64,000 nt of DNA from a virus (taxonomy: Duplodnaviria; Heunggongvirae; Uroviricota; Caudoviricetes). The notes under the pieces are model-generated. The model was not told the origin of the DNA and ran no database searches. It saw nothing but the letters and a program-made list of their open reading frames with translations. The stretch is from IMG/VR virus record IMGVR_UViG_3300029516_000004, positions 31,480-95,479 of that record. One strand, 5' to 3'. A program made the position numbers and the translations under genes. Below, one piece after another: positions 29,265 to 29,912 of this stretch; the stretch's first letter is position 1; the number at the start of each line of letters is the position of its first letter.

Positions 29265-29443
29265 TTATTAACCTCATTACTGGTTGGGAAATAAGGTTGC
29301 GGTGCCGGGTGCCTCCCGGTGTCCTTTAGCTGGTTATCCACCGTGGACGGGGAAATAAGGAGAAATAATGGACAGATATAACCATTTCCCCGCGTGCGCT
29401 TAGCCGCATTCACCGCAACGGAAAGAGCATTCCTGGTGGACCT

Positions 29444-29468
29444 GTAGATTGGGATATGAACCCGTTAC
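29444..29468. repeat. direct repeat copy 1 (GTAGATTGGGATATGAACCCGTTAC)
   Basis: 24/25 identical to copy 2, 279 bp downstream. Confidence 0.8.
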
Positions 29469-29722
29469 AGGAGAATGCTCTTACCTGTTACGTGCTCCGT
29501 TTCGTGGAGCTAACGGCGGGTGATCGGGCCGCACCAGACTGGACTTATTTCAGCGTTATGCTCATGCCAGAGAATCAAACTGTGATGGTCGGTGCTGAAC
29601 TCCGACACAGGGTTGTAGCAAGCCCCGCAAAGCGCGCACTACTGTAGTTGCGGCACATCAGCCTGTGCATTCACCACAATGTTGAGAACACTGGTTGTCA
29701 CGCTGCAACGCAACATTTATTC

Positions 29723-29747
29723 GTAGATTGGGATATGACCCCGTTAC
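29723..29747. repeat. direct repeat copy 2 (GTAGATTGGGATATGACCCCGTTAC), nested in a 17-bp inverted repeat
   Basis: Flanked by AATGTTGAGAACACTGG (29678-29694) and its near-complement CCAGTGTTCTCAACGTT (29749-29765). Confidence 0.8.
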
Positions 29748-29912
29748 GCCAGTGTTCTCAACGTTGTTGTGCCGGTTACGGTTCCGGCCAGGCCTCTTCC
29801 TCAACGGGGTGTTCTCCATACGGACTACCGTTTATTGGTCGTTCCTGCGGTTTATGTTGTGAAGCCAGATGCTTATCTTCTGGTTGCTTCAAAGAGCTGC
29901 ACTTCATCACAA

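Follow-up and report, generated by a model that had tools for sequence, protein, structure and literature searches.

The 64,000-nucleotide (nt) stretch analysed here (positions 31,480 to 95,479 of the IMG/VR record IMGVR_UViG_3300029516_000004; hereafter the window) is phage P1, and its spacer at 29267-29995, between tciA and the gene for tRNA-Thr, is 99.7% identical to NC_005856. A first-pass annotation, made from the letters alone, had noticed a pair of 25-nt direct repeats and an inverted repeat in this spacer. Both are pieces of a set of four hairpin units, arranged in tandem on the minus strand of the long untranslated leader of the ban operon; through these units P1 joins a large, unannotated RNA family, of which lambda also carries a member. 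The family has a conserved, strand-specific and covarying RNA architecture and is found in long phage operon leaders, beside terminators and tRNAs. As to function we propose, at a little less than even confidence, that this tandem modular RNA element in the ban-operon leader is processing punctuation of the RNase III type, that an initiator tRNA look-alike within it may engage a factor that reads the anticodon arm, and that its conserved frame sequences act as crossover points.

Four tandem hairpin units in the ban-operon leader

Repeat finding and folding showed that units A, B and C share one minus-strand frame, which runs from GCACAACAGG through a long stem, an apical domain and the returning strand to GUUGYGRUGAAKGC. 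The stem consists of about 20 bp of frame sequence (CACAAC-A-GGUAAGRGCAUUG ... CAGUGCUCUUWCCGUUGYG) with a central mismatch or bulge; it closes the variable apical domain, and downstream of it come a GGUGAAU tail and a small hairpin. In the case of units B and C another small hairpin stands in front of the unit, in addition to the one after the tail. Measured against dinucleotide shuffles, units A, B and C each fold at a z score of about -4.5 (A, -41.6 kcal/mol, z -4.64; B, -47.5 kcal/mol, z -4.44; C, -36.1 kcal/mol, z -4.67). None has the form of an intrinsic terminator, the P1 stems being followed by GGUGAAUGC and no U run. The units and their parts are listed here in the order of transcription.

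30347-30435, minus: unit 0, a frame-type long hairpin (predicted fold) GGCACAACAGGUAAGGGCGCUG ... CAGCGUCCUUUCCUGUUGC, upstream of tRNA-Asn and without the initiator-like module
29908-29994, minus: unit A, a 21-bp stem with its 5' strand at 29973-29994 and its 3' strand at 29908-29928 (repeat families D1 and I4)
29860-29891, minus: spacer hairpin UGAAGCAACCAGAAGAUAAGCAUCUGGCUUCA, which follows unit A here and many related units elsewhere
29772-29787, minus: H1-B, small hairpin CCGGAACCGUAACCGG preceding unit B; equivalents with different stems occur at related loci
29672-29771, minus: unit B, long stem 29749-29771 / 29672-29694 (inverted repeat I1)
29722-29748, minus: module B, CGUAAC-GGG-GUCAUAU-CCC-AAUCUACG, the second copy of the 25-nt repeat
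29653-29668, minus: H3-B, small hairpin GCACAGGCUGAUGUGC after the GGUGAAU tail
29494-29510, minus: H1-C, small hairpin GCUCCACGAAACGGAGC preceding unit C
29412-29493, minus: unit C, long stem 29473-29493 / 29412-29432 (inverted repeat I3), with an initiator-like module as its apex
29441-29471, minus: module C, CCUGUAAC-GGG-UUCAUAU-CCC-AAUCUACAGG, the first copy of the 25-nt repeat
29395-29408, minus: H3-C, small hairpin UGCGGCUAAGCGCA

Unit A begins one base past the CCA of tRNA-Thr and lies largely beyond the stretch that the first-pass annotation had delimited. Its apical domain comprises a hairpin resembling an anticodon arm (29957-29973, loop GUCGGAG) together with a canonical T arm, AGGGUUCGAAUCCCU (GGGUUCGAAUCCC), at 29930-29944. 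The apex of unit B is a three-way junction formed by a module that resembles the initiator anticodon stem-loop (ASL) and a second hairpin at 29695-29715. The stem of unit C carries the U.U mismatch and the bulged A that are conserved in the family. Unit 0 has its own small hairpin upstream (CCCCGU...ACGGGG). Within the 5' strand of unit B a single base, at position 29768, separates the window from NC_005856 (CACAAC here, CACTAC in the reference), and the window's form is the closer of the two to the family frame.

The direct repeat, GTAGATTGGGATATGA(A/C)CCCGTTAC, lies at 29444-29468 and 29723-29747 just as had been described, 279 bp apart and identical at 24 of 25 positions; zero such matches are expected from 100 dinucleotide shuffles of the window. 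The second copy does lie inside an inverted repeat, whose arms extend beyond the 17 nt first reported to 23 nt at 91% complementarity (29672-29694 / 29749-29771); the perfect 17-mer AATGTTGAGAACACTGG is their core. The earlier reading had missed that the first copy is enclosed by a hairpin as well (arms 29420-29432 / 29473-29485), and also two more paralogous hairpins, one directly after tRNA-Thr (29908-29994) and one at 30347-30435, as well as the two plus-strand reading frames, upl and plp, of the P1 GenBank record. Its view of the gap between tciA and tRNA-Thr as structured and non-coding, with the RNA on the transcribed minus strand, is borne out, and the length of about 600 bp is to be corrected to 731 bp.

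A conserved, strand-specific and covarying RNA family

The 3' frame pattern CTCTTWCCRTTGYGRTGAA was used to search IMG/VR contigs and occurs in at least 120 of them, mostly of lambdoid size. The general layout is a terminator, small hairpin or tRNA, then CACAAC-A-GGUAAGAGCAUUG, a hypervariable apical domain of about 40-180 nt, CAGUGCUCUUUCCGUUGUGGUGAA, and a small hairpin, typically GCGCAGGCUGAUGCGC. Of 88 distinct units, 77 fold more stably as the transcribed strand than as its complement (mean -35.7 vs -30.5 kcal/mol; Wilcoxon p = 7e-12), because of G-U pairs. The stability difference and the G-U pairs favour an RNA over a pair of DNA sites bound by protein. In a frames-only alignment the frame stem is 83.9% paired and 13 pairs change on both sides; none of 500 shuffles matches this, and slid controls lie far lower. 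Since the 3' frame was itself the search pattern, its invariance is partly by construction, and the informative pairs lie outside the pattern. The U.U mismatch is conserved in 54 of 66 sequences, the bulged A is conserved too, and the stem of the small 3' hairpin (H3) covaries across the family (GCGC, GCAC and ACGU, with GC changing to AU and CG to UA). A pairing of CAUA in the module loop with a conserved downstream UAUG was considered and dropped, UAUG being confined to the tail of one subfamily.

Further support came from the archetype units of SfV, SfII, ST64B, mEp460, cdtI and Stx2c phages, which follow a cI-like repressor gene, an STnc100-like RNA and a terminator. The module-bearing unit sits just before the first gene of the next operon. 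The archetype long stem uses other sequences (e.g. ACGCAACACACAAGAGCAUC / GGUGCUCUUCUGUGUUGUGU), and its consensus is a stem of about 20 bp with one or two central mismatches and a three-way junction of an initiator-like arm and a variable hairpin. Compensatory changes occur in 14 of the 33 pairs of the archetype alignment (e.g. CG 19 / GC 15). A covariance model, R1, was built from 35 aligned archetype units, none of them P1-type, and gave the following matches.

P1 unit C, minus: 41 bits, E 2.5e-11
P1 unit B, minus: 30.3 bits, E 1.4e-7
P1 unit 0, minus: 20.7 bits from the frame alone, E 3e-4
Lambda unit, plus (the strand of the lambda late transcript): 21.9 bits, E 7e-5

For P1 unit A, R1 gave a match on the wrong strand only.

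The minus-strand 25-nt repeat reads GUAAC-GGG-KUCAUAU-CCC-AAUCUAC. The sequence GGGTTCATATCCC within it had been taken for a T-arm-like stem-loop, a description that the family does not sustain: the P1 loops UUCAUAU and GUCAUAU lack A58 and do not fit UUCRANY, and the family loop NNCAUAW, mostly CUCAUAA, between GGG and CCC is that of an initiator anticodon arm. In its commonest version, GACGGGCUCAUAACCCAAUCC, the module shows the run of three G-C pairs characteristic of initiator tRNAs, next to a CUCAUAA loop with the anticodon CAU. The core of this version, CGGGCUCAUAACCC, is identical to the ASL of the Escherichia coli initiator tRNA, and the module shares 14 contiguous bases with the metZ anticodon arm CGTCGGGCTCATAACCCGAAG. 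The P1 modules GGG-GUCAUAU-CCC and GGG-UUCAUAU-CCC also have three G-C pairs, a 7-nt loop and CAU followed by a purine. In both P1 units the 25-nt module opens the apical domain, and the tip of its arm, GGG-NUCAUAN-CCC, is the part that copies the initiator arm. Loci gathered by way of the frame are unbiased with respect to the loop, and among them all GGG-N7-CCCAAUC hairpins have loops of the form NNCAUAW. The basal helix of the module covaries strongly (0.389 vs 0.155 for shuffles, with 0 of 500 shuffles reaching the observed value), and positions 30-47 of R1 align to the real metY anticodon arm. The CAU tRNAs of the same phages have no GGG/CCC beside the loop; the module therefore resembles the host initiator tRNA and not a neighbouring phage tRNA.

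The module pattern ACGGGNNCATAWCCCAATC was found in at least 120 further viral contigs, on several different frame sequences, and in prophages of Escherichia, Citrobacter, Enterobacter, Kosakonia, Mixta, Yersinia, Buttiauxella, Trabulsiella and Leclercia. Genomes outside the Enterobacterales gave 106 matches against about 140 expected by our own estimate for 596 Gb. This is close to chance, and the real range is therefore Enterobacterales prophages. Canonical T arms, with a 4-bp stem and a UUCRANY loop, occur in 10 of the 88 distinct apical domains against 0.05 expected. These T arms have at least six different sequences and adjoin either the 5' or the 3' stem strand (loci L009-L128). A full-text literature search returned no description of an initiator-arm mimic in prophages, nor did the frames appear in the searchable literature; older subscription literature lay outside the scope of both searches.

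Units lie downstream of Q antiterminators (three Pfam families), or of Dmt in P1-like phages, and upstream of holins (four families) or TerB. They directly follow terminators, small hairpins or tRNA 3' ends, and in 178 of 235 cases they have the orientation of the neighbouring long open reading frames (ORFs). P1 has the same arrangement: unit A comes after tRNA-Thr and units B and C after small hairpins, in an operon leader and in the direction of transcription. The lambda unit (44,787-44,862) starts 7 nt beyond the tR' terminator's U-run and overlaps the hypothetical orf-64 in part. At least 697 of 5426 complete E. coli genomes carry the element, with late regions of Shiga-toxin phages among its locations, and no RefSeq annotation was found at its sites in E. 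coli genomes. Nor does any Rfam family cover the units at permissive thresholds in P1 and 22 related loci, where the matches were tRNAs, partial STnc100 and chance microRNA-like hairpins.

Several candidate relatives were rejected. An antisense match to ftsZ-DE scored 18 bits and was judged insignificant. HK022, the source of the put-type antiterminator RNA, has neither frames nor module, and no sequence link to that RNA was found. Integron attC-like sites came to mind from the CACAAC/GTTGTG ends, and were set aside with no linked integrase and with evidence that is strand-specific and at the RNA level. The yfdO-yfdP spacer of prophage CPS-53 in E. coli K-12 contains no unit and provides no tie to the RNase III maps of K-12. 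CPS-53 (L235, 9248-9604) keeps yfdP-yfdT, which follow the archetype unit in other prophages, and its spacer has tandem repeats of the GATTTTGACGGGTCA type.

The spacers of P1, D6, P7, JL22, the Ro157 phage and SJ46 differ by swapped, inserted or deleted units or apical domains, and the mosaic breakpoints coincide with the frames. JL22 has one extra unit, and P7 and D6 have a tRNA-Ser in the spacer that is not present in P1. Among the 88 distinct units, 51 apical families recombine freely with 42 upstream and 23 downstream contexts: one loop occurs with up to five upstream contexts, and one upstream context with up to nine loops. tRNAs are found in 46 of 120 related loci.

A number of observations on individual loci were made in passing. 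The tRNA-Ser(UGA)-like gene of D6 and P7 (L002 and L003, 1638-1724, minus) is 87 nt long, and the authors of the D6 study state that tRNAscan-SE gives no amino acid for it. It directly precedes a unit whose loop holds sequence found downstream of the lambda unit. vB_EcoM-Ro157c2YLVW has an insertion of about 190 bp with a 42-codon ORF between units A and B (L005, 1463-1591, minus) and an extra tRNA-Tyr between tRNA-Asn and tRNA-Thr. In some lambdoid contigs (L051, 1953-1999, minus; L040, 4600-4646, plus) the sequence after the unit, AGCTAGATGGTGAGGTAAAGGCTCACCATGGCGACGA, resembles part of 16S rRNA at positions 237-283 of the bacterial small-subunit (SSU) model, which we take to be helix 11; the scores of 31-37 bits are below the gathering score.

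According to the annotation of the P1 record, minus-strand transcription of the C1-repressed ban operon takes in tciA, tRNA-Thr and tRNA-Asn. The operon runs from Pban through a dicF-like region, unit 0, tRNA-Asn, tRNA-Thr, units A-B-C and an STnc100-like leader to tciABC, tRNA-Ile2 and ban. The dicF-like region is marked in the P1 record at 30605-30706 (minus), further upstream in the ban leader, and the leader is therefore a string of non-coding RNA modules. A small hairpin of the type that precedes units, CCGGAGACGUACCCGG, lies at about 30153-30170 (minus), just 5' of tRNA-Asn, which suggests that tRNAs and units occupy equivalent slots. The remaining features of the locus are as follows.

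28839-29264, minus: tciA
29298-29417, minus: STnc100-like core in the 5' leader of tciA; Rfam RF02076, 34.8 bits against a gathering score of 47
29996-30071, minus: tRNA-Thr, co-transcribed with the units (ARAGORN; Rfam tRNA model, 72.9 bits)
30074-30149, minus: tRNA-Asn, co-transcribed with the units (ARAGORN; Rfam tRNA model, 74.5 bits)
29456-29647, plus: upl, annotated in the P1 GenBank record
29648-30025, plus: plp, annotated in the P1 GenBank record

Proposed processing punctuation and its rivals

The predicted stems of 19-22 bp, with one or two mismatches or bulges, reach the roughly 20 bp (two turns) of double-stranded RNA that characterizes an RNase III substrate. We suggest that RNase III would cut the double-stranded stem of each unit and that RNase E might cut the tail. 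Cutting would separate the tRNAs and the leader RNAs from the downstream tciABC-ban message and would set the stability of that message. Once excised, the apical domain with its look-alikes of tRNA parts may capture or titrate a factor that recognizes the anticodon arm of the initiator, for which the 30S P site with IF3, MetRS and a VapC-type nuclease are candidates. The conserved frames could double as crossover points that shuffle cassettes between phages. A precedent is known from the host, where RNase III cuts a hairpin in the rimP-metY spacer, just behind metY, freeing the tRNA and starting mRNA decay (PMC5371410). Our predicted fold places behind metY a hairpin whose stem has at least 20 bp. 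RNase III sites have also reportedly been described in the late transcript of lambda (Daniels et al. 1988, PMID 2849240).

Several points weigh against this proposal. What suggests RNase III is the length of the stems, together with analogy. RNase III needs no conserved sequence, and the near-invariant frames therefore need another reason, either recombination or a specific protein. The lambda sites of Daniels et al. may lie in the long tR' hairpin (about 44,720-44,781) rather than in the stem of the unit. At loop positions 32 and 38 the P1 modules (GUCAUAU and UUCAUAU) depart from the initiator sequence CUCAUAA. Most apical domains exceed shuffles only marginally in structure (mean z -0.5), and many of them may be filler rather than cargo; for the same reason we abandoned the idea that they are generally structured cargo. 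Finally, the region is dispensable for lytic growth of P1 in the laboratory, as judged by CRISPR interference (CRISPRi; PMC10695390).

In one rival explanation the stem would be a scaffold only. The functional portion would be the mimic of a tRNA part, namely the T arm of unit A and the initiator arm of units B and C, as a decoy or regulator directed at, for example, VapC-type toxins, the 30S P site, IF3 or MetRS. Retention of the module in at least 120 viral contigs on several different frames fits this explanation, as do the invariance of CAUA in loops that were collected independently of the loop and the excess of T arms in the apical domains. VapC of Salmonella and Shigella cuts tRNA-fMet in the anticodon stem-loop, and all VapC tested cleave ASL-like structures (PMC7180214). 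However, the stem is universal, whereas a module or T arm is present in some apical families only; three G-C pairs are kept and not the full 5-bp anticodon stem; and a decoy would need a high copy number. On balance we consider this explanation unlikely. The frames might instead be selected as DNA, either as short conserved linkers or as a selfish palindromic element, similar to miniature inverted-repeat transposable elements (MITE) or enterobacterial repetitive intergenic consensus (ERIC) sequences, that aids cassette exchange, the RNA fold being a by-product. In its favour are near-identical frames that enclose unrelated loops in mixed contexts, and P1-family mosaics that break at the frames. 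Against it are the G-U pairs that make the transcribed strand the better folder in 77 of 88 units, the diverged frames that keep their pairing through compensatory changes, and the 178 of 235 units that are oriented with the neighbouring genes; moreover, target-site duplications were not seen, and the units have no dedicated recombinase linked to them. We give this explanation little credence. A nut- or rrn-like signal for processive antitermination would also suit the leaders of long operons, beside terminators. The boxA consensus is UGCUCUUUAACAA; its core, UGCUCUUU, is present in the 3' frame, with a spacer and then a small hairpin behind it, and the small hairpins ahead of the units have loops of the GAAA type, as boxB does. 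The boxA-like bases are, however, paired within the long stem and are not conserved in the archetype subfamily, which has UGUUCUUC; the units are downstream and not upstream of the terminator; and lambdoid late operons already have Q. Antitermination thus seems to us a very slim prospect.

Two further explanations were considered. The suggestion in the first-pass annotation that the spacer holds decayed tRNA genes is at best a statement about origin; as an account of units with no present function it is very improbable. It draws on the setting in a phage tRNA cluster, with tRNAs in many related loci and the extra tRNA-Ser in the D6 and P7 spacer, and on the enrichment of pieces that resemble T arms and anticodon arms. 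ARAGORN found only tRNA-Met, tRNA-Thr and tRNA-Asn in the whole window, the Rfam tRNA model gave no match in 29267-29995 at E values up to 10, and none of the 88 related units contains an intact tRNA. Furthermore, the module is embedded in a conserved, covarying helix that is not part of a tRNA, and its arm matches the host initiator tRNA rather than the phage tRNAs next to it. The plus strand, lastly, could encode Upl (63 aa) and Plp (125 aa, 'putative lipoprotein'). Both genes are in GenBank with predicted sigma-70 promoters, and upl reads are present in a P1vir RNA-seq study (PMC8201110). Against this, neither protein has a significant Pfam match; plp has a TTG start, is cysteine-rich, contains no signal-peptide-like stretch and runs antisense through tRNA-Thr; neither gene is annotated in P7; cassette swaps and indels break both frames in relatives; and both genes are non-essential by CRISPRi (PMC10695390). 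We attach almost no credence to the coding explanation and judge that upl and plp are not genes; the earlier statement that the spacer contains no convincing ORF thus stands against the P1 annotation.

Processing punctuation by RNase III remains the reading that we put forward. We also see an outside chance of a broader role, in which enterobacterial temperate phages (P1, many lambdoid phages and SfV/ST64B-like prophages) would carry a small structured RNA that displays the initiator anticodon arm on a stem excisable by RNase III and would release it in the lytic programme as a decoy or competitor, for example against VapC-type abortive-infection toxins or at the 30S P site. If the element is functional, a conserved regulatory or processing module lies unannotated in two phages that are among the best studied, after tR' in lambda and in the ban leader of P1. 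It would account for the punctuation and shuffling of tRNA genes, small RNAs and morons in such leaders, and would take the doubtful upl and plp out of the P1 annotation. A mimic of the initiator-tRNA anticodon arm would join the known tRNA look-alikes and would provide links to translation initiation and to toxins that cut tRNA-fMet.

Comparison with known systems

The metY-rimP-nusA-infB operon has a tRNA gene at the head of a long operon and, directly after it, a hairpin of about 20 bp or more, an arrangement comparable to that of unit A. There is no sequence homology between the two, and R1 matches only the metY anticodon arm; we therefore regard the metY-rimP hairpin as an analogue and reject it as a homologue. 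The phage element, unlike the metY hairpin, has conserved frames, swappable apical domains and tandem copies, and cleavage of its stems is something we infer.

STnc100 (RF02076) and the Pas small RNAs occupy the same prophage neighbourhoods, beside Q antiterminators, TerB genes and tRNAs (bioRxiv 10.64898/2026.05.13.724894). At its start STnc100 has a UGGUGAAU tail and a small hairpin, the same as those found after a unit, while the long-stem units and the initiator-like module are outside the STnc100 model. The P1 sequence falls short of the threshold of 47 bits for the full model; it covers model positions 31-147 only and contains no terminator module, and is thus related but truncated. A full-length STnc100-like RNA (41.2 bits; L209, 5559-5781, minus) starts inside a short-loop unit and ends at a terminator directly before an archetype unit, so that STnc100 and the units are physically interleaved.

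The thrS operator, which mimics an anticodon arm in an mRNA leader, and YrlA, a tRNA-like Y RNA, likewise display a hairpin that copies a tRNA arm on a longer helix. In YrlA, as in unit A, a long stem is joined to tRNA-like structure with a T arm. The YrlA model (RF02553) has no match on the units; its sole match (25.6 bits against a gathering score of 69) spans two real tRNAs. In contrast to both systems, the phage units have no linked aminoacyl-tRNA synthetase or Ro/Rsr partner. Like the units, ERIC and MITE palindromes and the 'boundary sequences' of lambdoid mosaic genomes are imperfectly palindromic, lie between genes in transcribed sequence and at mosaic joints, and vary inside while their ends are conserved. 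The units differ from them in an interior that is hypervariable instead of conserved, in compensatory RNA covariation and in strand bias, with no target duplications seen. Taken together, we rate the element as a structured, tRNA-mimicking leader RNA: the kind is known, and this variant is new.

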